From an uncultured Gammaproteobacteria bacterium (GTDB lineage Bacteria > Patescibacteriota > Microgenomatia > Levybacterales > GWA1-39-11): a stretch of DNA of 64,000 nucleotides. The stretch covers positions 4,367-68,366 of the forward strand of contig CAZMSF010000002.1 of NCBI GenBank assembly GCA_964568885.1, written 5' to 3'. The translations under genes were made by a program, and so were the position numbers. Below, piece by piece: positions 5,812 through 55,171 of this stretch (within the stretch, counting starts at the first letter, position 1; each line of letters begins with the position of its first letter). The notes under the pieces are model-generated. The model had not been told where the DNA came from. It did not search any database and worked only from the letters and a program-made list of their open reading frames with translations.

Positions 5812-8406
5812 TTATGGCGTACAGACATAGCAATTTGTTTGTGTGCCCGAGCCCAAGTCACAACCATTTCCTTCGCCTTTCCATCCCCAATATCCTGTTC
5901 CGCCTGGGTAGAAGCATTGCATGTTGGCCTCTGATGCGCTTCCGCACATTGAGTTTGCAGGATGTCCTACACAGCTTGAAGGAGGAGTATACGATGATGT
6001 TGGAGCCGGGGCCGTCGTAGTAGATGGTACGGGAGCAGTTGTTCCGCCACCGGGAGCAGGAGTAGTGGTAGTTGTGCTACCTCCCGGCCTCTTTGTGCAG
6101 CAGACATTCGGCCGTCCGTTTGTCTCGCTGCAAACTCTGTCTCCATTTGTTCCTCCGGGGCCTATTGGCGCATGGTCGTAACCTGCAAGACATTGTGTCC
6201 CATCCTGACACTCATTGTTGGTGAGTCCACCTGCAGCGTTGTAATAAGGACAGTCCGCTTGATAACCGCTTCCTCCGCCGCTACTGCCGGTAGGCGAAGG
6301 TGAGACATATGGGGTTGCACTCATGCATGCTGCGGTATTTTGTACATCAGTTTGAGACTGAGCGCACCAGCGGCCCGTTGCACAAAATTGTCCATTAGGA
6401 TTATCGGGAGGAAATACCTTACCTGAAGCTTCTTTATAGCATCCAAGCGTTCCACCGCATCCGCCTCCTGTAGGACATGCACACCCTACACCCCAATTGC
6501 CGAAATTTGCCGCAGAACAATTGTTTGAGGCACCCGGAGTTGGAGTGAAGGCCACCCCTCCTTTATATTGGCAGGTGTAACTGTTGGGATACAAGGGGTT
6601 GGGATTTGTGCACTCAAGGTTTTTATTCGGTTCACAACAATAGATTTTATTAGAATAGTCATTGGGATGACAAGTCTGCCCTTGATAGGCGGTACAATTT
6701 GCATCGGGTCCTACAGTTGGCGAAGGAGTAGTAGTGCCTCCTGTTGCCGGACACCAAGGGGGAGAAGAGCAGGTATTTCCTCCGCTTGGGACATAATCGA
6801 CATATCGTTGACTTGTTGACGGGTCGATATTTTGGCAGATGTATTTGTCTTTGTAGACACCGCCGCAGAATTCGCGCGCTGCTGCCTTTGTCGCGTCAAA
6901 AAGCTTTTCGTTACATGTGCCATTAACATATGACAAAACTCCGCCTTTTACTCCGGCGCATGGACCCGATGCTGGGCCGGGTGTTCCTCCGCCAGGAGAT
7001 GTTGTTCCTCCGCCTGGAGCCGGGGTGGAGGAGCTACCTCCAATGCTCGAGCCATAATACTGAGCATATTTGTCCGGGTCATAGCAGCATATTCCCCCGT
7101 TGCATTTGTCATTGCCATAATTATCGTGGCCTGATGCTTTGTAATCAACGGTATGTTTGTCTCCGTTCACGCCACAAGATGATAAGCATGCAAACGTGCC
7201 ATTGATATTGCCAACAGCGGTGCAACTGTTAGGATCCGAAGAAGGTGGGGGAGTACTTGCGGGTGGAGGTGTGGCACCAGCGGCAGCGTCACACCTCAGG
7301 GAGGAAGTATTGCATTTTTGTGAAGCACAAACAACATTTACAGGCAAACCTTGAGAAGCATAGTCCTCACAAAGAGCATTAGTACCCCCTTGCGAAGTGG
7401 AGACACAAGAACTGCTCCCTTTTTGACCTTTTACATTGCTAATGCAGAATTGATTTGCAGGACAGTCAGAGTGAGTTTTGCAGCTTTCACCTGAGGCTAA
7501 CGGTGCCTCGCATTTCAGTGTATAGGCATTGCATTTTTGTGAAGCGCAAACAATATTTACCGGTAGTCCCTGGGAAGCATAGTCCTCACAAAGAGCATTT
7601 TCCCCACCCACCCTAGATCCAACACAAGAGCTACTTCCTTTTTGACCTTTTACATTGCTAATGCAGAATTGATTTGCAGGACAGTCAGAGTGAGTTCTGC
7701 AGCTTTCATTTGAAGTAGGAGGTGTAGCAGGCGGGTTTTCGCATACATCAAGCGACTTATTACAGTAGCTCGAAGCACAGTGTTCGTTTTCAAAACAGGG
7801 TTCTCCCAATCCCTGCTGGTACTTACCACAGTATCCTATCATTCCAGCATCAGGTCCAGCTGTTTTTGCTCCGGGGATACAATACTGACCTGGGCTTGAG
7901 TAACAAGCGCCGGTGTAGCAAGTTTGTCCAACATCTTGTTTCGTTTGACATCGTTGAGCATCTCCTTTGCCGCCTCGATAGACAAAGCACTCATCTAAAT
8001 GGTCTTTGCATTGATTTATAGATAGTGAGCCACAATCTACCGGTTTACGGACACAATATCCACACCTTCCATAGCCTATATCTTGGATAACACATTGATT
8101 ATCAAAGCAGTTGTGTAGATTGGCCTGACCATAAGAAAGATAATTTCCATTTCTGGTCGATGTGCAAGTATTTAAATCGGACCCACAATATTCGTATTCA
8201 ATATAGCCTCCCAACTGAGAATTGTAAGAACCGATTTGTGCTCCCAAAACACCTTTTTGTTTAATGCCGGAATAACTATTATTTGCAGCATAAGCTACTC
8301 CCTTTGTGGAGTTTAGAAATGAGAGGAGTCCGTAGATAATTCCTATAGCCAATAAAAGGATGAATAGAGGTAAATATAATGCTTTCAGTTTAACGAATAA
8401 GTTCAT
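5812..8406 (-). CDS. large secreted Cys/Gly-rich low-complexity protein with internal 73-aa tandem repeat
   Basis: 864-aa ORF with an N-terminal TM/signal (LPLFILLLAIGIIYGLLSF). It is extremely Cys-, Gly-, Thr- and Pro-rich. Two near-identical 73-aa units (SC[RK]THSDCPANQFCISNVKGQKGSSSC...CEDYASQGLPVN[IV]VCASQKCN) are encoded at 7267-7704. Confidence 0.7.
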   Translation of the reverse strand: MNLFVKLKALYLPLFILLLAIGIIYGLLSFLNSTKGVAYAANNSYSGIKQKGVLGAQIGSYNSQLGGYIEYEYCGSDLNTCTSTRNGNYLSYGQANLHNCFDNQCVIQDIGYGRCGYCVRKPVDCGSLSINQCKDHLDECFVYRGGKGDAQRCQTKQDVGQTCYTGACYSSPGQYCIPGAKTAGPDAGMIGYCGKYQQGLGEPCFENEHCASSYCNKSLDVCENPPATPPTSNESCRTHSDCPANQFCISNVKGQKGSSSCVGSRVGGENALCEDYASQGLPVNIVCASQKCNAYTLKCEAPLASGESCKTHSDCPANQFCISNVKGQKGSSSCVSTSQGGTNALCEDYASQGLPVNVVCASQKCNTSSLRCDAAAGATPPPASTPPPSSDPNSCTAVGNINGTFACLSSCGVNGDKHTVDYKASGHDNYGNDKCNGGICCYDPDKYAQYYGSSIGGSSSTPAPGGGTTSPGGGTPGPASGPCAGVKGGVLSYVNGTCNEKLFDATKAAAREFCGGVYKDKYICQNIDPSTSQRYVDYVPSGGNTCSSPPWCPATGGTTTPSPTVGPDANCTAYQGQTCHPNDYSNKIYCCEPNKNLECTNPNPLYPNSYTCQYKGGVAFTPTPGASNNCSAANFGNWGVGCACPTGGGCGGTLGCYKEASGKVFPPDNPNGQFCATGRWCAQSQTDVQNTAACMSATPYVSPSPTGSSGGGSGYQADCPYYNAAGGLTNNECQDGTQCLAGYDHAPIGPGGTNGDRVCSETNGRPNVCCTKRPGGSTTTTTPAPGGGTTAPVPSTTTAPAPTSSYTPPSSCVGHPANSMCGSASEANMQCFYPGGTGYWGWKGEGNGCDLGSGTQTNCYVCTP
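7267..7704 (-). repeat. two tandem copies of a 219-bp coding repeat inside the 864-aa Cys-rich protein gene
   Basis: The DNA at about 7486-7704 and 7267-7485 is near-identical, for example the recurring gcatttttgtgaagc[ag]caaaca and gacagtcagagtgagtt[ct]tgcagctttca. It encodes two 73-aa protein repeats. Confidence 0.7.
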
Positions 8407-8451
8407 AAACCGGCTAATATAATCTCAGAATACGATGTTTTAAACTCAAAG

Positions 8452-8973
8452 TCAACAGCCCGTCGCAGCACCGTTGTAGGTTTTGTTAATTATGGCACCC
8501 GATGAGACGGTTATCTTCCAAGCTGCGTTTCCGAACCCGTCGTCGTTACTTAAAGTCAACGGATACGTTTGGGATGGTGGAACAAAAGGCTGAGAACCGA
8601 TGGTTTTTGTTGCGCTGGATAGTTCTACCGTTGCTCCTGTCGTACCTTCGACCTTTACGCTCCCCGTCATGTAGGGTGCTTTTCCTTGTTTGCATCCATC
8701 AAAAGTGACGATTACGCTCCATTCTGATGGAGGGCCTGAGGGAGTGGTGGTGCCTGTCGTGCCGGGGGTTCCGGATGTGCCACCCGGTGTGGGAGTGTCT
8801 ATGACGGAAGATGGCTCATTGCCGGAAAAAAGACTGCCGCCGCCACCTGCAAGCATGATGGCAAAAACAACAACGATTATGAAAAGAATAATATAGGAAG
8901 ATGATTGACCACGTTGGGAGACTAATGATTTATGGTTAATAGTTAATAGTTGATGGAAAAATTTAATAGGCAT
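8452..8973 (-). CDS. small signal-anchored Thr/Gly/Pro-rich secreted protein
   Basis: 173-aa ORF with the hydrophobic segment YIILFIIVVVFAIMLAGGGG followed by a TPTPGGTSGTPGTTGTTTPSGPP linker. Confidence 0.5.
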   Translation of the reverse strand: MPIKFFHQLLTINHKSLVSQRGQSSSYIILFIIVVVFAIMLAGGGGSLFSGNEPSSVIDTPTPGGTSGTPGTTGTTTPSGPPSEWSVIVTFDGCKQGKAPYMTGSVKVEGTTGATVELSSATKTIGSQPFVPPSQTYPLTLSNDDGFGNAAWKITVSSGAIINKTYNGAATGC

Positions 8974-35107: not shown

Positions 35108-36034
35108 ATGGAAGTGAAGGAGAAGAAAATATCGGCCAAAACGGTAATAGTCGCGTCATTTCTTGTGGACGTCCTTGACATCGTTCTCTCCGTTTTTGTA
35201 TCGGTTGTGACAGGGAGCGTTATCATGTTGACCGAAGCACTCGAAGGGGTATCCGACCTCACCTCTTCCGGGTTACTATTGATTGGACTTAAACGTTCTA
35301 CTCAAAAAGCTGACAGGTCACATCCATTTGGGTACGGAAGGGAAATTTATTTTTGGACTCTCTTGGCGGCGCTTGTAATGTTTGGGGTGACCTCAACGGT
35401 TTCAATTTATTTTGGCTGGCAGCGGATAGTGAATCCTCACCCCGTTGAAAACCTGTATCTTGCTCAAATAGTCCTTCTCATCGCGTTTTTTTCAAATGGG
35501 TACGCATTTTTCCTGAGTTACAAAAGGCTACTTAAGAAAAGGAGTTTTAATCAAATTGTAAAAATATTCTATAAGTCATCCCTTGTTGAGACAAAGACCA
35601 CCTTCATTCTGGATCTTATGGGAACGATAGCTTCATTTTTAGGTATGGTAGCTCTTGTGATTTACAGACTTACCGGGGATGTGCGCTTCGATGGAATAGG
35701 CGCTGTAGTTATTGGAGTTGCGCTTTCTTTTCTTGCGCTTCTATTGGTGATGGGAATTCGCGACCTGTTGGTTGGCAGAAGTGCTTCTCGAGAAACCGAG
35801 GAAAAAATAAAAAAGGCGGCACTTATGGTTGAGGAGGTAAATGATGTGCTCGATTTGAAAACGCTGCATGTCGGGTCCGAAAAATTGTTGGTCAATCTTG
35901 AGGTGCATATGAAAAACAATTTGGATACCGATGAAATAGAAAAATTGATGGATGAAATAAAGGAAAGAATACAACGCGAAGTACCCTCGGTAAAATATAT
36001 CCAGGTGGAGCTGGAAACCCCCGATAAGAAGTAG
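35108..36034 (+). CDS. cation diffusion facilitator (CDF) family metal efflux transporter
   Basis: Six TM helices plus a C-terminal cytoplasmic domain, with CDF-typical HD/D sites. Confidence 0.85.
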   Translation: MEVKEKKISAKTVIVASFLVDVLDIVLSVFVSVVTGSVIMLTEALEGVSDLTSSGLLLIGLKRSTQKADRSHPFGYGREIYFWTLLAALVMFGVTSTVSIYFGWQRIVNPHPVENLYLAQIVLLIAFFSNGYAFFLSYKRLLKKRSFNQIVKIFYKSSLVETKTTFILDLMGTIASFLGMVALVIYRLTGDVRFDGIGAVVIGVALSFLALLLVMGIRDLLVGRSASRETEEKIKKAALMVEEVNDVLDLKTLHVGSEKLLVNLEVHMKNNLDTDEIEKLMDEIKERIQREVPSVKYIQVELETPDKK

Positions 36035-36688: not shown

Positions 36689-39223
36689 TTGACCGCTAAC
36701 CCCGAATCCACCACGAAGGTGGGTACAACTGAAGGAGAGGTTGACCTCGCCGAACGGAATGTCGTTTGGCTCCGCGAGATCGGAGTCGAGCACATCTCAA
36801 TCGCCGGCGGTAAAGGTGCCAACCTCGGCGAGATGATGCGCACCGGAGCACCCGTGCCGAACGCTTGGGTTGCAACGGCTCACGCACACGCAGCCTTCGT
36901 CAGGAGTCTGCCGCAGGCTGTCATCGACAAGATGGTGGCCCTCAACGACGCAGACCGCAAGAACGTCACCGCCTTCGCAGTCCTCGTAGAGGAGATCAAG
37001 ACCGGTATCGAAGAACACGAGCTTCCGCTCGAGCTTCGGACGCTCTTCCTCCGTTCCTACGAGATGATGAGGCGGGAGGACGGCAGCCCGGAAGTGGTTG
37101 CCGTTCGGAGTGCAGCCCGTCCTGAGGACGGTGCTGACGCATCCTTCGCGGGTCAGCAGGGAACCTTCACGGACATCCGTGGAGGCGAGAATGTCCTGCA
37201 CGCAATCGTTGCGTGCTGGGGCACATGCTACGAACTCCGCTCGGTAATCTACCGGGCAGAGCTTCGGGAGCAGACCCTCGAAAGCGCAGCCGCAGAACCC
37301 GATGAAGTCCGCAAGCGCGAGCTTCTCGAGTTCGCCGACTGCCTCCGCCACGAGAACTTCGCGATGGCAGTCGTCGTCCAGAAGATGGTCCAGTCCTACG
37401 TGTCTGGCGTCATGCTGATGGTCGACGCTGCGACAAGCGATCCCGCGTTCATCACCGTCCAGGCCGCGTTTGGCCTCGGGCAGGGTGTGGTCGACGGGAC
37501 GATGGAAGCGGAGACGTTCAAGTTCCGCAAGGACGACGAACTGACGCTCGTTGAGGGGCCCATCCGCGTCGCACAGCCTGAGATGTATGTCCGGAACCCG
37601 GACAGCACCGGTTCTATCGAGGACGCCACCATCAAGGTGGCGACACCTCCGTACCTCATCAACGCACCCAAGCTCACGAGGGGCCAAGCACGAGCCATTG
37701 CCCGGTACGGCATGGACATCGAACGGCATTACGGAGCCCCGCAGGATATCGAGTGGGCCGCGGTCCAGGAAAAGACCGACTGGCTCGACTTCTTCATCCT
37801 GCAGACCCGACCCATCACCGTGAAGCCCATCCTCCTCAGTGGAACCCCCGCTCCGACAGAGTCGACCCTCCTTGGGACCGGCGCTGCCGCGAGTCCGGGA
37901 GTCGGCGTGGGGCGGATCCGTATCGTGACCGGCGACCCCGGCAAGGACGCCTCTATCCTGGAGATGGTTCAGCCCGGCGACGTTCTCGTCACCGAGATGA
38001 CCACTCCGGACTGGGTTCCTGCCATGAAGCGGGCGGCAGCCATCATTACCCATCAGGGTAGTGTGACGTGCCACGCCGCTATCGTCAGCAGGGAGAAAGG
38101 GATCCCCTGCATCGTCGCGGTACACAACGCGCTCGAACTCCCCGATGGGGAACTCGTGACGGTCAACGCAGCGACCGGCCAGATCTGGCTCGGCGAATGC
38201 CAAGACACCATCGCATGGTGGGCGGCAGAAGTCGAGTACATGAAGAAGATGGCCCAGAACGTCGAAACCGTCACTCACGTCTGCATCAACGGCGCATCGC
38301 CGCTCGATGTGCAGAAGGCCCTTTCCGAGGGCAAGCGGCCGCGCGGCAACACGCTCGCGCGGGCGGAGTTCTTCTACCTTGACGTCTTCAACCAGCACCC
38401 ACGGGCGCTTCTTGACGACGGCAGGCGGGAGGAAGCCGTTCAGACCATGGTCGACGGCTTCAGCGAACACGCGAACCTTATGTGGCCCGAAACGGCCACA
38501 GTTCGCACCAACGACCTCAAGCCTCACGAGCTTGGCAAGCTCGGTAACGGGCGGGGTTGGGACTACGAGAAGCCCAACATGTCCGAGAACCCGCAAGACG
38601 GGTATCGCGGCGTGGCACGCTACCTCGACCCCAACAATCCCGGCGAGCAGGAAGCTTTCCGCATGGAGGTCGAGGCAATCGCCAAGACGTTCCTTGCTGG
38701 CTGGACCAACATCCAGCTGATGCTGCCGTACGTCCGGGCGGTCGAAGAGTTGACGGAGTGCCTTGCGCTCATCGACTCCATCCTCGAGCCTCTCGGCGTC
38801 AAGCGTGGCGGCGAGGACGGACTCCGGGTCATCATGATGGTTGAGCTGCCTGAAAACGCACTCAACCTCGATGCCTACATCGACGAGGGCATTGATGGCG
38901 TTTCCCTGGGCTCCAACGACATGGGGTCCAAGGTGCACGGCCTTGACCGCGACTGGAAGGGTCGCGCCAAGTACGCCGCCATCGAAGTCGGACCGTCGAT
39001 GCTCAAGCTCTACCAGATGGTAGGCGAGGTTGCCCATCGGCGCGGCCTCAAGTACATCGGGTTCTGTGGGCAGGGCGTTGCGCTCTTCCCCGAACTCGCC
39101 GGCAAGCTCGTCGGCTGGCACTACACGCACATCGGTTGCTCGCCCGACTCGTTCGAGGCGACACTGATCAATACGTACAACGCCGAGTTGCGGCTTGGCA
39201 TCAGGGCCCACAAGGCCGCTTAG
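36689..39223 (+). CDS. ppsA: phosphoenolpyruvate synthase-like enzyme (pyruvate, water dikinase family)
   Basis: N-terminal PPDK_N/ATP-grasp segment ISIAGGKGANLGEMM…VPNAWVATAHA. Central phosphohistidine swivel motif HQGSVTCHAAIVSREKGIPCIVAV (compare E. coli PpsA GGRTCHAAIIARELGIP). C-terminal PEP-utilising TIM barrel VIMMVELPENALNLDAYIDEGIDGVSLGSNDMGS…DRD. The start is TTG 36689 or GTG 36716. The 832-aa minus-strand ORF 36797..39295 is a GC artifact. Confidence 0.8.
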   Translation: MTANPESTTKVGTTEGEVDLAERNVVWLREIGVEHISIAGGKGANLGEMMRTGAPVPNAWVATAHAHAAFVRSLPQAVIDKMVALNDADRKNVTAFAVLVEEIKTGIEEHELPLELRTLFLRSYEMMRREDGSPEVVAVRSAARPEDGADASFAGQQGTFTDIRGGENVLHAIVACWGTCYELRSVIYRAELREQTLESAAAEPDEVRKRELLEFADCLRHENFAMAVVVQKMVQSYVSGVMLMVDAATSDPAFITVQAAFGLGQGVVDGTMEAETFKFRKDDELTLVEGPIRVAQPEMYVRNPDSTGSIEDATIKVATPPYLINAPKLTRGQARAIARYGMDIERHYGAPQDIEWAAVQEKTDWLDFFILQTRPITVKPILLSGTPAPTESTLLGTGAAASPGVGVGRIRIVTGDPGKDASILEMVQPGDVLVTEMTTPDWVPAMKRAAAIITHQGSVTCHAAIVSREKGIPCIVAVHNALELPDGELVTVNAATGQIWLGECQDTIAWWAAEVEYMKKMAQNVETVTHVCINGASPLDVQKALSEGKRPRGNTLARAEFFYLDVFNQHPRALLDDGRREEAVQTMVDGFSEHANLMWPETATVRTNDLKPHELGKLGNGRGWDYEKPNMSENPQDGYRGVARYLDPNNPGEQEAFRMEVEAIAKTFLAGWTNIQLMLPYVRAVEELTECLALIDSILEPLGVKRGGEDGLRVIMMVELPENALNLDAYIDEGIDGVSLGSNDMGSKVHGLDRDWKGRAKYAAIEVGPSMLKLYQMVGEVAHRRGLKYIGFCGQGVALFPELAGKLVGWHYTHIGCSPDSFEATLINTYNAELRLGIRAHKAA

Positions 39224-39524
39224 ACCGGAGCTCACCGTGAAGCGCGAGTTCCGGATCTTCCATACGAAAACCAGGCCGACCGCGAGGTCGGACACCGGGG
39301 ATGGTCCATACGGTCCATCCTCGCCCCTCCGCCGGTATGAGCGGGCAGACCCACAAGTGGTCTCCCTGCCATTCGGCGGGGGGACCTACATAAACAACTC
39401 AAAACCCCTAACTTAAAACTCAAATCTTATTTTCCAATATCCTCAAGTTTTTCTTACCCTTCTTTGTTTCAATACCAAGACTACCAATATATGATGTATC
39501 AACCTTTGGTGAAAGGAGGTATAA

Positions 39525-49784: not shown

Positions 49785-50588
49785 ATGGCATTAACAGAAT
49801 TACAACCAAGAATTGCAATTGTAAAATACCCCGGCACGAACTGTGAGGGAGAAACAGCCTATGGAATAACTCTTGCAGGGGGTATTCCCGATATTGTTCT
49901 TAATTATGATTTGGAGAGGGGTGATGTCCAACTGCCCGATTATCAAGGAGTCATATTTGCCGGAGGATTTTCCTATGGCGATGATTTGGGTTCCGGAAGG
50001 GTTGCGGCTTTGAAATTAGACAGTAAGTACGGCAACCAAGTTGAACGTTTTAAAGAAAAAGGAGGGATTAGTCTTGGCATTTGTAACGGAAATCAAATAA
50101 TGGCGCAGTCCGAGCAGTTTTTTACAGATGAAGCGGGTCGAGAGTTAACGCTTGATAGAAATGACAGGGCACACTTCAACAGCGACAGGGTGAAACTTTT
50201 GTACGAACCAAACAATAGGTGTGTTTGGTTGAAAGATTTGCAGGAATATGGGCCTGTAGAATTTCAGGTCGCCCATGGTGAGGGAAAGTACGTGTTTGTA
50301 AAACCCGAAAAGCTTGCCGAGCTTGAAGCAGAGGGGAGGGTGTTATTTAGATATGCCGGAAAAGATGGAAAACCAACGCTTGCCTATCCATTAAATCCAA
50401 ACGGTTCTGTTAACGGCATTGCAGGAGTAGTTGATAGAACAGGTCATCATGCTGCCCTCATGCCTCATCCGGAGCGGTCAATCAAAAGAGAGCAATATGC
50501 AAATTCGAGACGCCTTCCTCAAGATTTTATTCCCGAAGGGCTAACGCTGTTGAAGCACTATGTGGGGCATGCGCGGCAATCGGCCTAA
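49785..50588 (+). CDS. purQ: phosphoribosylformylglycinamidine synthase glutaminase subunit
   Basis: The class-I GATase nucleophile elbow LGICNGNQIM and the catalytic HPER pair. Confidence 0.9.
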   Translation: MALTELQPRIAIVKYPGTNCEGETAYGITLAGGIPDIVLNYDLERGDVQLPDYQGVIFAGGFSYGDDLGSGRVAALKLDSKYGNQVERFKEKGGISLGICNGNQIMAQSEQFFTDEAGRELTLDRNDRAHFNSDRVKLLYEPNNRCVWLKDLQEYGPVEFQVAHGEGKYVFVKPEKLAELEAEGRVLFRYAGKDGKPTLAYPLNPNGSVNGIAGVVDRTGHHAALMPHPERSIKREQYANSRRLPQDFIPEGLTLLKHYVGHARQSA

Positions 50589-51241
50589 ATTACCTCTTTC
50601 GTAAAAAGGGATGAGAGGATTTCAAAAGCCCTATTTATATTTTTATCTTCAAAAAATAGCGTAAATTCGCTTTTCGTAGGGGAGGCGCCTATGATGTTTA
50701 TTCCTTCCCATGCCAAAGATTTTAGGAAAAAATAATACACCCCGGCCGTGGTCATCGCCTCGGCAGGAACGTATACGGTGATTTGAGATATGTTTTGCAA
50801 ATTCGTAATGATTGAGTCTACATTGACACTCGCAAGCAGTTTTTCAAGGAGCACCATGCTTCCGGTAATTTGAATTTCGGTTGCGCCAACGGTTATTGCA
50901 CCAAATGTGCCCTTAACCCTATTTAAAAACAGTTTTGAGACAAGCTCTTCGGTTTCTTTAGTTCGGGCAATAACGACAAAAAAAAGCCCCGAGCGGATAA
51001 CCATTTCAGGAGGATGTTTGAAAATTTCCTCGCTTTTATATTTTGGTTTGAAATTTTTCTGTAAGCGTTTGAGTGCCATTATAATTGAACCCGAGCTCAC
51101 GTTTTTTATCAGCATCTGCTCCAATTCGGGTTGTATATAGCGGGCCAATGATGAGAGGTTGATGATGTCTTTTGCCAAAGCCTCGGAAAGGTACCGTGAG
51201 CGTTCGACTATTTTTTTTGTTGCTTCGGGAACAGTAATCAT
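50585..51241 (-). CDS. hypothetical protein with tandem ACT-like regulatory domains
   Basis: 218-aa ORF with two beta-alpha-beta-beta-alpha-beta-like segments. It resembles the aspartokinase regulatory region. Low certainty. Confidence 0.4.
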   Translation of the reverse strand: MITVPEATKKIVERSRYLSEALAKDIINLSSLARYIQPELEQMLIKNVSSGSIIMALKRLQKNFKPKYKSEEIFKHPPEMVIRSGLFFVVIARTKETEELVSKLFLNRVKGTFGAITVGATEIQITGSMVLLEKLLASVNVDSIITNLQNISQITVYVPAEAMTTAGVYYFFLKSLAWEGINIIGASPTKSEFTLFFEDKNINRAFEILSSLFTKEVI

Positions 51242-51355
51242 GAAGATGTTAATATCTTAACAAAATATACGGTTTTGTAAATTTTATTTCAAAAATTGAC
51301 CTCAATAGGAGTTTCATTTTACCATTCTTATGACAAAGAAAGGAGGTGTAAGCGC

Positions 51356-51535
51356 ATGGAAAGAATCAAAACAAAACCTGAAGGGGCCGATTTTCGGGCA
51401 ATAATCAACCAACCGCTACGCGATGAGATGGCTGAGCTCTCAAGGCAGCTTTCTGTTGCAGACAATGAAGGAATGTATGACAGACGAGATGGTGCTCCGG
51501 TTGAATTAAAGGCGGGGGTTGAGGGTAATGTTTAG
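51356..51535 (+). CDS. small hypothetical protein (59 aa)
   Basis: An ATG at 51356 lies 9 nt after AAAGGAGG. The product is MERIKTKPEGADFRAIINQPLRDEMAELSRQLSVADNEGMYDRRDGAPVELKAGVEGNV. Confidence 0.35.
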   Translation: MERIKTKPEGADFRAIINQPLRDEMAELSRQLSVADNEGMYDRRDGAPVELKAGVEGNV

Positions 51536-51552
51536 CTAATTGTATCTTCTGC

Positions 51553-51582
51553 TTGACTTAACTTTTCACGGGTGAGTACAAT
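51553..51582 (+). promoter_or_regulatory. promoter TTGACT-18-TACAAT upstream of the MgtE-N/CBS gene
   Basis: Hexamers at 51553-51558 and 51577-51582. Confidence 0.45.
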
Positions 51583-51626
51583 GAAGGAGGAAGCAAATCC
51601 CCATATATGTTTCATAAAAAACAGAT

Positions 51627-52844
51627 ATGTTCTACTTTTCCGAACTCATCAACAAGAAAGTGGTCAATGAGAATAATAGGACCATCGGTAAGCTAAAAGA
51701 CTTTTTGTTCCTGGCAGAAGAATCCCCAAAAATTACGAAGCTATTCGTTAGAAAAAGTAAATGGCGAAGTTATTCGATACCAATTCAAGACTTAAAAACA
51801 GTCAATGGCCGCATCGTCGTTTCCAAAGATTTTACTGAGAAAGAGGTATCCGATAAAGAATTTTCCTTGGCCCACAATTTGCTCAACCGACAAATAATTG
51901 ACGTCAAAGGGGGAAAAGTCGTTCGGGTTAATGATATCGCGATACAAGACAAGGAGGATAAGCAAGAGTACTATATTGCCGGCGTTGATGTTGGTTTTCG
52001 CGCGATACTCCGTTGGTTCAAATTGGAGAAAGCGTTTACGCCTATATATAAGGCGCTGAATTTGTATTCTCACCCGCACTTTTTATCATGGGGAGATATA
52101 GAGCCATTGGAGTTGGCAAATGGCACCGTACAGCTTAAGAAGGATATCGGAGAATTGGAGAGAATGAGACCGGAGGATTTGGCAGACTATTTGGAGAAGA
52201 CGAATATCAGAAATGTGAACAAAGTCATTACCGGACTTGGCGATGAATATGCGGCAGACGTTATCGAAGACTTGAATATCAACTATCAGACTGCGCTTTT
52301 CAAAAGATTTGCCCCCGAGAAAGCAACCAAAATCATAGACCTTCTGGAACCGGATGAGGCTGTTGATATTCTTCTGACGTTGCCTCGGGAAAAACGCATT
52401 GAAATACTTGAGGGTCTTGAAAAAACCAAAAATGAGGAGCTAAAAGAGCTGATGAAGTATTCAAAAACGTCGGTAGGAAAACTTATAAACCCGAACTTTA
52501 TCACTGTCGGTTCAGAGATAAACGCAGGAGATGCTTTATCAAAAGTAAAAGAGGCACTTGTCGAGCAGCCATTTGCAAAATATGTATATTGCGTAAATAG
52601 TGAAGAGCATTTGGTGGGGGTTTTTGAGCTTCCAAACCTTCTTATCCAGGCATCCGATACTCCTGTCTATAAATTCATGGAACAGGACGTTGTTGTTGCG
52701 CACCTGACTACCCCTCAGGAAATCGCCTTAAAAAGGATGCTTAAGTACAAATTGTATGCACTTCCCGTTATTTCAGACAACCAAAAAATGATTGGGGTCG
52801 TTACCTTTGATGACATGATTGAGGATATTGAAGAGAAGTTGTAA
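51627..52844 (+). CDS. soluble MgtE-type cytoplasmic regulatory module: PRC-barrel + MgtE_N domain + CBS pair, no transmembrane pore
   Basis: The MgtE_N-like segment is EDLADYLEKTNIRNVNKVITGLGDEYAADVIEDL…ILLTLPREKRIEILEGL. Two CBS motifs cover about residues 290-400. The ORF ends before any TM helix. Confidence 0.7.
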   Translation: MFYFSELINKKVVNENNRTIGKLKDFLFLAEESPKITKLFVRKSKWRSYSIPIQDLKTVNGRIVVSKDFTEKEVSDKEFSLAHNLLNRQIIDVKGGKVVRVNDIAIQDKEDKQEYYIAGVDVGFRAILRWFKLEKAFTPIYKALNLYSHPHFLSWGDIEPLELANGTVQLKKDIGELERMRPEDLADYLEKTNIRNVNKVITGLGDEYAADVIEDLNINYQTALFKRFAPEKATKIIDLLEPDEAVDILLTLPREKRIEILEGLEKTKNEELKELMKYSKTSVGKLINPNFITVGSEINAGDALSKVKEALVEQPFAKYVYCVNSEEHLVGVFELPNLLIQASDTPVYKFMEQDVVVAHLTTPQEIALKRMLKYKLYALPVISDNQKMIGVVTFDDMIEDIEEKL

Positions 52845-54088
52845 TGAAAAAAATAATTAAGAGACTACGGATTAAAATTTTTATTTTGTTAGCCGTTGTG
52901 GGGCCAGGGCTTATTACGGCGTTTGCCGACAACGACGCTGGAGGGGTCGCGACATATTCTGTTGCCGCATCGAAATTCGGCTACTCAATGTTGACAACTC
53001 TCATCCCCATTACCATTGTTCTTATGGTAACTCAAGAGATAGGCTCGCGTTTGGCTGTTGTTAGTGGAAAGGGATTGGGGGATTTGATACGTGAGAAATT
53101 TGGCATCAGAGTTTCCGTGCTGATCTTTGCGCTGCTATTTTTCGTCAATTTCGGAGTCATTATCCAAGATGTTGGAGGGCTAAAAGACGGACTTGCACTT
53201 TTCCACCTCAATTTGTGGATTTTTATGCCGGTTGTAATAGCATTTTTGTTCTTTTTCATAACAAAAGCTTCATATGCAAAAGTTGAGAAATTTTTCTTAT
53301 TTTTAATATTCTTTTACATTGCATATTTCGTAAGCGCCGTACTCGCAAAACCCGACTGGGGACTTGTGGGAAAATCACTGGTGATGCCGGTTGGCAAGGT
53401 CTCCTTTGACTATTTATATACTTCAATTGCAGTCCTTGGAACAACGGTTACTGCTTGGGGTCAATTCTTTATCAACAGTTATGTGAAGGATAAAAAATTG
53501 ACGGTCGATAGAATTGGATACAACAGGCTTGAAATATATTTCGGAGCATTCTTAACCGATATTGTGACACTTTTTATGATGGTGGCAGTTGCCGCTACGG
53601 TATTTACCCATAATGTACAAATACAAGGAGCTGCAGATGCTGCGCTTGCCATAAAGCCTTTCGCAGGGGATTTGGCAGGGGTGATGTTCGGAGCGGGACT
53701 TATCGTTGCGGGGTTTATTGGAGCTGCAATTGTCCCATTGGCAACCGCATATGCCTTCTCTGAATTTTTTGGATACGAAGGGAGTCTGGACGTAAATTTC
53801 TCAAAAAGCAGACTCTTCTATGGGTTTTTCATCGTCCAAGTGCTTCTCGGGGTTGCAGCAGTAAGTTTTCCCAATTTTGCCCTTTTCAAGTTCACACTTT
53901 ATGCAGATTTCATTAACGGTTTGTTTTTGCCGATTATATTTTTCTTCCTGTATAAATTTGCTAACGACCGCGAAATCATGGGGAAGTACAGAAATAACCA
54001 TATTCAAAATGTACTGCTCATCGGTTCCGGACTTGTTATCACAATAGCCTCCCTTGTTGGTGGGGTAGGAAAAGCTTTTGGAATGTAG
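52844..54088 (+). CDS. NRAMP-family transporter with non-canonical (NRMT-like) metal-binding site
   Basis: The TM1 region GPGLITAFADNDAGGVATY has D-A-G-G in place of the canonical D-P-G-N. The TM6 region GAAIVPLATAY lacks the canonical Met and His. The start overlaps the upstream stop (ATGA). Confidence 0.8.
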   Translation: MKKIIKRLRIKIFILLAVVGPGLITAFADNDAGGVATYSVAASKFGYSMLTTLIPITIVLMVTQEIGSRLAVVSGKGLGDLIREKFGIRVSVLIFALLFFVNFGVIIQDVGGLKDGLALFHLNLWIFMPVVIAFLFFFITKASYAKVEKFFLFLIFFYIAYFVSAVLAKPDWGLVGKSLVMPVGKVSFDYLYTSIAVLGTTVTAWGQFFINSYVKDKKLTVDRIGYNRLEIYFGAFLTDIVTLFMMVAVAATVFTHNVQIQGAADAALAIKPFAGDLAGVMFGAGLIVAGFIGAAIVPLATAYAFSEFFGYEGSLDVNFSKSRLFYGFFIVQVLLGVAAVSFPNFALFKFTLYADFINGLFLPIIFFFLYKFANDREIMGKYRNNHIQNVLLIGSGLVITIASLVGGVGKAFGM

Positions 54089-54091
54089 TCT

Positions 54092-55171
54092 ATGGCGCGT
54101 CTTACCTATCAACAACTTATAGATAAACATTTGGAGATTTTAAAAGGACTCCAATATGATAGCGGACTTTTTGCAGCTGCGGACAAAAGCGTCGGAACCG
54201 GTTACGAGAAAAGTTGGTTAAGGGATAATTTTTATGAAACCATTGCATTCGAAGTAATAGGAGACTGGAATACGGTTGAGAAGACATACAGAGCTATTCT
54301 TTCGATTCTTCTCAAACATGAAGAAAAAATCGACTGGGCAATAGAGAACAAGCCTACCGAGTCTTTTCAATTTATCCACGCGCGTTTTCACCCCGAGACT
54401 TTCGACGAATTTTGGGAGTCGTGGGGGAATAAGCAAAACGACGCGGTAGGGTGTATTTTGTTCCGCATTGGGGAACTTGAGCACCATCACAACCGGGCAA
54501 TTCTTACCGATGAGTCTCACGTAAGAATAATCAACAAATTAGTGAGATATTTGGAAGCTATCGAGTATTGGCAAAATGGCGACAGTGGTATGTGGGAAGA
54601 AGATGAAGAGCTGCATGCATCCTCCGTTGGAGCATGCGTTGCAGGACTCGAATCGATTAAGAGGTTGCCATCTATTCAGGTTCCGGAAGAGCTCATAGAA
54701 AGAGGAAGAAATGCGTTGGTAGAATTACTTCCCCGTGAATCAGAACGAAAATTCGTTGACTTGGCATTGCTATCGCTCATTTGGCCATACAATGTGGTAA
54801 CAGACGCTCAGCGAGATGAGATCTTGAAAAATGTTGAGTACCATTTGCTTCGGGAACGAGGAGTAATACGATATAAGGGGGATAGATATTACAATAAAAA
54901 TGCAGACAGTATAAGTGAGGAAGCTGAGTGGACTTTCGGTCTTGCGTGGCTCGCAATTATTTACGGAAAGCTGGGGCAAACGGAAAAAGCATTTTCTTAC
55001 ATAAAGGACTTGATAGCGGATGACACCCCGGAGGGTGTTCCGGAGTTATATTTCTCAAATTCGCCCGAATATAATGACAATACGCCGCTTGGGTGGTCCG
55101 AATCACTGTTTATTGTTGCATTATTTGAAATGCAAGAGCGGTGGGAAATGGAAGCAAAAGAAAAGGAGTAG
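54092..55171 (+). CDS. glycoside hydrolase family 15-like (glucoamylase-fold) protein
   Basis: SWLRDNFYE is a GH15-type motif and the repeat pattern is aromatic-rich and helical. It lies 3 bp after the Nramp-like gene. Confidence 0.5.
   Translation: MARLTYQQLIDKHLEILKGLQYDSGLFAAADKSVGTGYEKSWLRDNFYETIAFEVIGDWNTVEKTYRAILSILLKHEEKIDWAIENKPTESFQFIHARFHPETFDEFWESWGNKQNDAVGCILFRIGELEHHHNRAILTDESHVRIINKLVRYLEAIEYWQNGDSGMWEEDEELHASSVGACVAGLESIKRLPSIQVPEELIERGRNALVELLPRESERKFVDLALLSLIWPYNVVTDAQRDEILKNVEYHLLRERGVIRYKGDRYYNKNADSISEEAEWTFGLAWLAIIYGKLGQTEKAFSYIKDLIADDTPEGVPELYFSNSPEYNDNTPLGWSESLFIVALFEMQERWEMEAKEKE

Follow-up and report, generated by a model that had tools for sequence, protein, structure and literature searches.

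Introduction

Most genes of the Nramp-related transporters of the NRMT (NrmT) type adjoin a gene for the cytoplasmic domain of the Mg2+ channel MgtE, termed an 'MgtE-like fragment', for which cytoplasmic feedback regulation or a metal chaperone role was proposed by Shin et al. (2014, PLoS Genet, PMC4072509). A gene pair of this kind, consisting of a putative Mg2+ sensor gene (its product is referred to below as the partner) and a gene for an NRMT-type transporter, was analysed here in a 64,000-nucleotide (nt) stretch of Patescibacteria (Levybacteria) DNA, and the whole of this stretch is called the window. The pairing of sensor and NRMT and the feedback idea are not new, having been published in essence in 2014 (PMC4072509), and the locus is an additional Patescibacteria (Levybacteria) example of the published arrangement.

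The closest transporter with a known structure is EleNRMT of Eggerthella lenta, by which both Mg2+ and Mn2+ are carried and in which transport proceeds without H+ coupling; the NRMT signature is DxxG-TxxA/T replacing DxxN-AxxM, and the Gly of the DxxG motif leaves the site wide enough for a hydrated ion (Ramanadane et al. 2022, PMC8806188). What the MgtE-like partner of the NRMTs does has been a standing question since 2014 and was left unaddressed in the 2022 structural work on EleNRMT, in which the partner gene is not discussed. In the literature searched, no paper was found that deals with a PRC barrel together with MgtE. The types N-CBS-TM, CBS-TM, TM and mini-N are listed in a 2025 preprint on the classification of MgtE, with no PRC type and no stand-alone sensor, and neither PRC nor Nramp is mentioned there; Nramp is also unmentioned in a 2022 review of Mg transporters.

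The operon would encode an NRMT-type uptake transporter for Mg2+ (probably also for Mn2+), preceded by a conserved cytoplasmic partner, and the partner is proposed here, with a probability of about 0.5, to be a trans-acting Mg2+-responsive regulator (a brake) of an uncoupled Mg2+/Mn2+ NRMT uniporter. Added to the published picture are the PRC barrel on the partner, the existence of fused PRC-MgtE relatives, the pattern of conserved and lost Mg sites, the TxxT and α10-Asp variant of the transporter and the absence of an M-box.

Conservation of the gene pair

The two genes are located in the window as follows.

51627..52844, + strand: putative Mg2+ sensor gene ('MgtE-like fragment'), 405 amino acids (aa), soluble PRC-barrel + MgtE_N + CBS pair
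52844..54088, + strand: NRMT-type Nramp-related transporter gene, 414 aa, Pfam Nramp

Both open reading frames (ORFs), as given in a preliminary description of this DNA, were present at these coordinates in the ORF table. The junction between them, which had been described as an ATGA overlap, was read as ...TTG TAATG AAA, in which the TAA stop codon and the ATG start codon share one A (1-nt overlap); ATGA is the commonest junction among the relatives (19 of 83 loci).

By the names borne by close homologues, the window is assigned to Candidatus Levybacteria / Levyibacteriota within the Patescibacteria. The genomes of GTDB species were scanned with patterns derived from the transporter, by which 80 loci were obtained, spanning Levy-, Roizman-, Gottesman-, Woese- and Doudnabacteria and others. 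One locus was left out as untestable, having only 128 nt of upstream sequence. A search for co-occurrence in other genomes had been called for in the preliminary description, and the pair was found in the Eggerthellaceae as well as in 78 of the 79 testable Patescibacteria loci, in which the partner, with both its PRC and its MgtE parts, lies directly upstream of the transporter on the same strand. The adjacency persists where transporter identity has dropped to 45-50%. In 30 of the 83 loci the stop codon of the partner overlaps the start codon of the transporter (-1, -4, -8 or -14 nt), and in 58 of the 83 the two genes are at most 10 nt apart. The sole testable exception is locus L062 (190-2017), where a 184-aa hydrophobic membrane protein, instead of the sensor, precedes the NRMT-type gene.

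In the Eggerthellaceae, whose transporters are 91% identical to EleNRMT, a PRC+MgtE_N+CBS gene lies 4 nt upstream of the transporter gene. The partners concerned (L085, 2644-3996; L087, 2629-3996) have 450-455 aa and a single C-terminal hydrophobic helix at residues about 416-436, so that the sensor would be tail-anchored in this form; upstream lies a tRNA gene. A homologue search with EleNRMT as the query returned Eggerthellaceae proteins only (84-94% identity), so the partner context in other phyla (Clostridia, Acidobacteria) is taken from Shin et al.

Because it recurs in nearly all testable loci of different genomes, the arrangement is not a product of chance, and since the adjacency is conserved with stop and start codons that overlap or nearly touch, a functional link between partner and transporter is strongly implied by the sequences. 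A low probability is given to an account in which the genes are neighbours but the proteins do not meet, the partner having its function elsewhere in the cytosol, where it might control other targets in response to Mg2+ via its PRC barrel. PRC barrels do occur in RNA-metabolism proteins such as RimM, but the adjacency recurs in Actinobacteria as well, often with overlapping stop and start codons, and the Eggerthellaceae partners would be placed at the membrane by their C-terminal hydrophobic helix.

Identity and metal site of the transporter

The transporter ORF was matched by Pfam Nramp (PF01566) over profile positions 1-356 of 357 (E 1.6e-75), and about 10 hydrophobic segments were counted in a hydropathy scan. 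A comparison with NRMT and MntH sequences had been recommended in the preliminary description, and in it the transporter proved far nearer to EleNRMT, its top match in the PDB (7qia; E 4.6e-76, 260 bits, residues 9-403, 34% identity), than to the MntH structures, which were matched at about 1e-17 (best E 7.6e-18, 68 bits); the NCBIfam MntH and Nramp models all stayed far under their cut-offs. Two motifs of the metal site, in the transmembrane (TM) segments TM1 and TM6, were located by alignment to EleNRMT.

52934..52945, + strand: TM1 metal-site motif D31-A-G-G34 (DxxG), aligned to EleNRMT D55 and G58
53441..53458, + strand: TM6 metal-site motif T200-T-V-T203-A-W205 (TxxT), aligned to EleNRMT T224xxA227-P-W

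Residue conservation was counted over 72 partners and, for the transporter, over 72 relatives. D31 and G34 are invariant (72/72), as are T200 and W205 (each 72/72), and T203 is kept in 70 of the 72. W205 aligns with the Trp by which the first TM6b His is substituted in EleNRMT, and the canonical TM6 Met is absent; the D-A-G-G motif in TM1 and the missing TM6 Met and first TM6b His, which had been noticed from the letters alone, were thus confirmed by the alignment. EleNRMT E133 and A227 correspond to D109 and T203, respectively. The earlier assignment of a Mg2+-type Nramp site is in agreement with the DxxG and TxxT motifs and with a similarity to EleNRMT that far exceeds that to MntH. By sequence criteria the transporter is an NRMT, whose substrate would be Mg2+ (and probably Mn2+).

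Domains and structure of the partner

The domains of the partner are arranged from the N-terminus as follows.

51627..51824, + strand: PRC-barrel domain, residues 1-66; Pfam PF05239, E 1.9e-13, 50.7 bits against a cut-off of 21.2
51861..51989, + strand: second PRC-like beta segment, residues about 79-121; E 0.0055, 17.1 bits, under the cut-off of 21.2
52164..52466, + strand: MgtE_N domain, residues 180-280; Pfam PF03448, E 1.1e-19; holds D211, D243 and D247
52476..52829, + strand: CBS pair, residues about 284-401; Pfam CBS at 348-401, E 1.3e-12; holds D396 and E399

Both CBS motifs of the partner are spanned by the Foldseek and PDB alignments. The preliminary description had placed PRC-barrel-like segments before the MgtE part; one of them is a significant PRC barrel, and the second stays below the threshold, a sub-threshold segment of this kind being found in the partners of both the window and the Eggerthellaceae. 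Nearly all of the 120 closest partner homologues have the PRC barrel, as do the Eggerthellaceae partners. The most conserved region of the partner lies outside the MgtE portion and comprises the beta-rich residues about 85-135, which correspond to the sub-threshold PRC-like segment, plus the start of the N domain, with Q89, I91, D92, G95, K97, R100, N102, D103, G119, D121 and G123 as invariant residues.

In the PDB sequence search, only cytosolic domains of MgtE were matched by the partner (2oux, 8gpv, 2yvy and 8gps; E 1e-18 to 1e-19, residues about 177-403). An AlphaFold2 model of the partner, built with 47 homologues, had a mean predicted local distance difference test (pLDDT) score of 80.5, and its residues about 176-405 were superposed on MgtE 2zy9/2yvy with a Foldseek E of 1.5e-19 and a root-mean-square deviation of 3.4-3.8 Å. 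The NCBIfam mgtE model TIGR00400 was matched over profile positions 26-253 of 450 only, with a score of 114.8 below the cut-off of 232.75. The MgtE TM domain (PF01769) was not matched by Pfam in the partner, no membrane segment was seen in its 405 aa in a Kyte-Doolittle scan, and the chain stops where the MgtE plug helix begins, with residue 405; just the first turn of that helix is present. Taken together, the Pfam, NCBIfam and PDB matches span no more than MgtE residues about 25-253. The absence of PF01769, the sub-cut-off TIGR00400 score and the end at the plug-helix position together argue that the partner is not an MgtE channel, and Pfam, TIGR00400 and hydropathy agree with the earlier statement that the ORF encodes the soluble part of MgtE and stops before any membrane helix.

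The wider family was collected by an exhaustive HMMER search with the partner among 1.84 billion cluster representatives, by which 307 representatives were found at E ≤ 1e-30, and the best 150 of the 307 were classified. Stand-alone proteins of 395-470 aa account for 114 of these 150, nearly all of them aligning end to end with the window partner, and 113 are stand-alone proteins of this length with at most one predicted hydrophobic segment. Another 20 (among P0403-P0508) have 585-656 aa and match over their first ~400 residues, after which they run on into 4-6 hydrophobic segments, with the exception of P0403, in which there is one; PF01769 was detected in 3 of 6 such forms scanned. All 405 aa of the window partner align with the N-terminal 400 residues of forms of the P0409, P0461 and P0503 type, with E about 1e-41 to 1e-48. 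Judged by these alignments, there are also proteins in which the complete PRC+MgtE_N+CBS module is joined to an MgtE pore. In a crude neighbour-joining tree, rooted on MgtE of Thermus thermophilus (TtMgtE) and drawn without support values, the fused forms and the Eggerthellaceae partners were placed near the root and the stand-alone forms made up the derived bulk; the position of the fused forms suggests, as far as such a crude tree can be read, that the stand-alone partners descend from fused forms that lost the pore.

Resemblance to the N-terminal half of MgtE only could also be expected of a broken, frameshifted or truncated pseudogene of a full-length mgtE, and this explanation is effectively refuted. 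The partner's stop codon overlaps the transporter start, which leaves no space for a pore domain, and no coding remnants of the MgtE TM domain are seen downstream. A partner length of 400-414 aa is kept in dozens of genomes, and the stand-alone form with at most one hydrophobic segment prevails among the best representatives classified. A frameshifted full-length MgtE was accordingly rejected: the continuation into TM helices, named in the preliminary description as the outcome that would contradict it, was not found, the transporter following at once in a layout that is shared by the testable loci with the one exception given above.

Upstream region

One candidate promoter was located in front of the sensor gene.

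51553..51582, + strand: sigma-70-like promoter candidate TTGACT-18-TACAAT; 10/12 consensus positions, a consensus match only

This was the best + strand site in the region and lies about 45 nt upstream of the sensor start codon. In other phyla, M-box Mg2+ riboswitches precede many partner genes and are transcribed with them, an arrangement that is frequent and not universal (PMC4072509). No Rfam match at gathering score was obtained over the whole window (1-64000), i.e. no tRNA, rRNA or riboswitch; within 51150-51750 no M-box was matched with the threshold relaxed to E 10, and none was found in 13 related loci (11 from other Patescibacteria and 2 from Eggerthellaceae). An M-box or other riboswitch upstream of the pair was rejected over these ranges. 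The promoter candidate, if real, would leave a leader of ~45 nt, which is too short for an M-box and agrees with the lack of an Rfam match.

Proposed mechanism and its weighing

In the proposed mechanism, at high cytosolic Mg2+ the ion would bridge the N and CBS domains of the partner at the Mg4-type pair D243/D396, and the closed partner, bound to the transporter from the cytoplasmic side with its PRC-like region as the docking element, would slow or block import; on a drop in Mg2+ the partner would relax and import would restart. The partner is likened to the cis-acting N/CBS gate of MgtE, since in the fused relatives the same module is linked covalently to a Mg2+ pore. A brake would make sense because NRMT transport is not coupled to H+ and would otherwise run with the membrane potential, and because the lineage is without an M-box for control at the RNA level. 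The gene layout, the homologies, the metal-site signature, the conserved adjacency, the partly kept Mg2+ sites, the fused relatives and the lack of a riboswitch are seen in the sequences; we infer the physical docking, the PRC region as the docking surface, the responsiveness to Mg2+ and the inhibition rather than activation.

For the Mg2+ sites, the numbering of TtMgtE was mapped by alignment, and the offset was verified with E59, D91, D95, D226, D247 and D250. The corresponding positions in the partner are given below, with counts over the 72 partners.

Mg4, TtMgtE D91: window D243; D in 67, E in 5
Mg4, TtMgtE D247: window D396; D in 58
TtMgtE D95: window D247; invariant
Mg5, TtMgtE D226: window K375; mostly K, N or R
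Mg5, TtMgtE D250: window E399
Mg7, TtMgtE E59: window D211; acidic in 45 only

The aligned residues indicate that the Mg4 acidic pair (D243/D396) is kept and that conservation of the Mg2+ sites is partial.

Several points weigh against the proposed brake. In the partner, the Mg5 position D226 is occupied mostly by K, N or R, the Mg7 position is acidic in no more than 45 of the 72 partners, and the residues of the plug-helix sites Mg2 and Mg3 are absent because the partner ends at residue 405. The ATP-binding CBS residues of MgtE are Y170, R187, D188, N203 and F227 (Tomita et al. 2017), and these positions are Y319, P336, N337, E352 and L376 in the window, respectively. In the transporter, the α10 Gln of EleNRMT (Q379), mutation of which cripples transport (PMC8806188), corresponds to D355, and the 72 relatives have D (50), N (17), S (3) or Q (2) at this position. 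In published experiments, the NrmT transporters of C. acetobutylicum complemented without a partner (PMC4072509), EleNRMT transported in liposomes without one (PMC8806188), and co-expression of the Acidobacterium capsulatum pair Acp2976 and Acp2977 in B. subtilis, the only published test of the partner, did not improve Mg2+ rescue (PMC4072509). The two-component Mg2+ system envisaged in the preliminary description is therefore upheld in part: a functional link is implied by the adjacency, and the system is not obligately two-component, because the NRMTs of C. acetobutylicum and E. lenta transport without the partner.

In a second explanation, considered rather unlikely, the partner works with the transporter but not as a gate closed by Mg2+, being instead an activator, a stabiliser, an assembly factor, a metal chaperone or a responder to another ligand (Mn2+ or a CBS-bound metabolite). 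It is favoured by the good conservation of just one of the cytoplasmic Mg2+ sites of MgtE, by the many ligands bound by CBS pairs, as seen in the Foldseek match list, and by the metal chaperone offered by Shin et al. together with the handling of Mn2+ by the A. capsulatum pair (PMC4072509). The Mg4 acidic pair and the equivalent of D95 are, however, strongly conserved, and the M-box riboswitches in front of many partner genes elsewhere (PMC4072509) also speak for Mg2+. The position of the adenine-stacking F227 is aliphatic in 71 of the 72 partners, a point against ATP binding of the MgtE kind; MgtE-like modulation of the partner by ATP was rejected on residue conservation.

That the transporter of this clade is mainly an importer of Mn2+ (or of another divalent metal), the operon serving trace-metal uptake, is judged unlikely. 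EleNRMT carries Mn2+ too (PMC8806188), and Acp2977 of A. capsulatum, which fully rescued a Mn2+ defect and rescued that of Mg2+ only partially, is mainly a Mn2+ importer (PMC4072509); the clade also has TxxT rather than TxxA and an Asp or Asn at the essential Q379 position, and no M-box was found in the window or in the related loci. The Asp or Asn at the Q379 position makes the substrate preference uncertain. Against a Mn2+ importer, the soft-ligand Met is absent, G34 and T200 are invariant, T200 being the equivalent of EleNRMT T224, which is needed for Mg2+ and far less for Mn2+ (PMC8806188), and the partner derives from the sensor of a Mg2+ channel. An oxygen ligand is retained at the α10 position by D355. 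The α10 Gln is of functional importance and does not define the NRMT clade, and D355 marks this clade as a variant.

The Mg2+-responsive brake is thus retained as the preferred account of the partner. A wider form of it, held tentatively and at somewhat less than even chances, is that PRC+MgtE_N+CBS would be a portable Mg2+-gating module which, having lost its pore, docks via the conserved PRC-like/linker region onto an uncoupled uniporter of the LeuT fold and closes it at sufficient cytosolic Mg2+; the sensor would then have been exchanged between unrelated folds and would replace riboswitch control in genome-reduced Patescibacteria. If a detachable Mg2+ gate of this kind is real, it would explain how feedback control of the channel type arises in an uncoupled secondary-transporter fold, and it would clearly exemplify the reuse of a single sensor module on membrane folds that are unrelated. 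Experiments could be guided by the Patescibacteria set, with its 78 paired loci, soluble partners, lack of a riboswitch, invariant metal motif and conserved Mg4-type pair.

Neighbouring genes and other features of the window

A third gene follows the pair directly.

54092..55171, + strand: GH15-like gene, 359 aa, Pfam Glyco_hydro_15, E 9.3e-13

Its start was found 3 nt past the TAG stop codon of the transporter, at the distance reported earlier, and it is probably co-transcribed with the pair. The gene was found downstream of the transporter in 7 of the 80 genome loci, in the closest relatives only. In L005, the closest distinct species, an insertion of ~2.6 kb (6239-8873) separates the GH15 gene from the transporter and breaks the adjacency. 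A GH15 gene as a component of the system was rejected on these two grounds; because it is restricted to the closest relatives and displaced in L005, it is local synteny, a neighbour outside the system.

Upstream of the pair, a 59-aa ORF (MERIKTKPEGADF...) is located at 51356-51535 (+), flanked by the sensor gene and by a divergent gene for a 218-aa protein. It is preceded by a strong Shine-Dalgarno sequence (AAAGGAGGTG), has no Pfam match, is called as a gene in metagenome assemblies and is kept in the relative L005 with 76% amino-acid identity. The divergent 218-aa protein (50585-51241, - strand), also with no Pfam match, is kept upstream of the pair in L005, L012 and L013 with 62-81% identity.

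Further away, 16 kb from the pair, a metal-homeostasis gene for a CDF (cation-efflux) transporter with a ZT_dimer domain lies at 35108-36034 (+). A GC-rich island (56% versus about 43% elsewhere) at 36689-39295 encodes an 844-aa PEP-utilising enzyme (PPDK_N, PEP-utilizers, PEP-utilizers_C), overlapped by an 832-aa antisense ORF without a family match, and may have been horizontally acquired. Many of the genome loci, including L005-L013, contain genes 75-92% identical to those of this Levybacteria locus under the title 'uncultured Gammaproteobacteria bacterium', and judged by that identity these titles look like mislabels.

Comparison with known systems

The published NrmT operons (Ca_c0685; Acp2976/Acp2977) share with the locus an MgtE cytoplasmic homologue immediately upstream of an NRMT-outgroup transporter. 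They differ from it in that an M-box is often present in the published set, whereas the window and the related loci are without one, and a PRC-barrel N-terminus is not mentioned in the 2014 paper; the host of the window belongs to the Patescibacteria (Levybacteria), and the window clade has TxxT and an Asp at the α10 Gln position.

EleNRMT (7qia/7qic) resembles the window transporter in its fold, in the DxxG and TxxA/T site and in the replacement of the TM6b His by Trp, and uncoupled transport would be shared as well, if the likeness extends to it; close relatives of EleNRMT carry a PRC+MgtE_N+CBS gene upstream. The residues A227, Q379 and E133 of EleNRMT are replaced by T203, D355 and D109 in the window transporter, respectively, and the Eggerthellaceae partner has 450 aa and a C-terminal hydrophobic helix, whereas the window partner is fully soluble.

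The MgtE channel (T. thermophilus, 2yvx/2zy9; TIGR00400) has a homologous, superposable N domain and CBS pair and the Mg4 acidic pair. In contrast to it, the window partner has neither a TM pore nor a plug helix past the first turn and bears a PRC barrel at its N-terminus; Mg5 is lost, Mg7 is partial, Mg2 and Mg3 are missing and the ATP residues are unconserved. The PRC-barrel MgtE channels of ~600 aa contain the same PRC, MgtE_N and CBS domains as the window partner, but run on into the MgtE TM domain PF01769.

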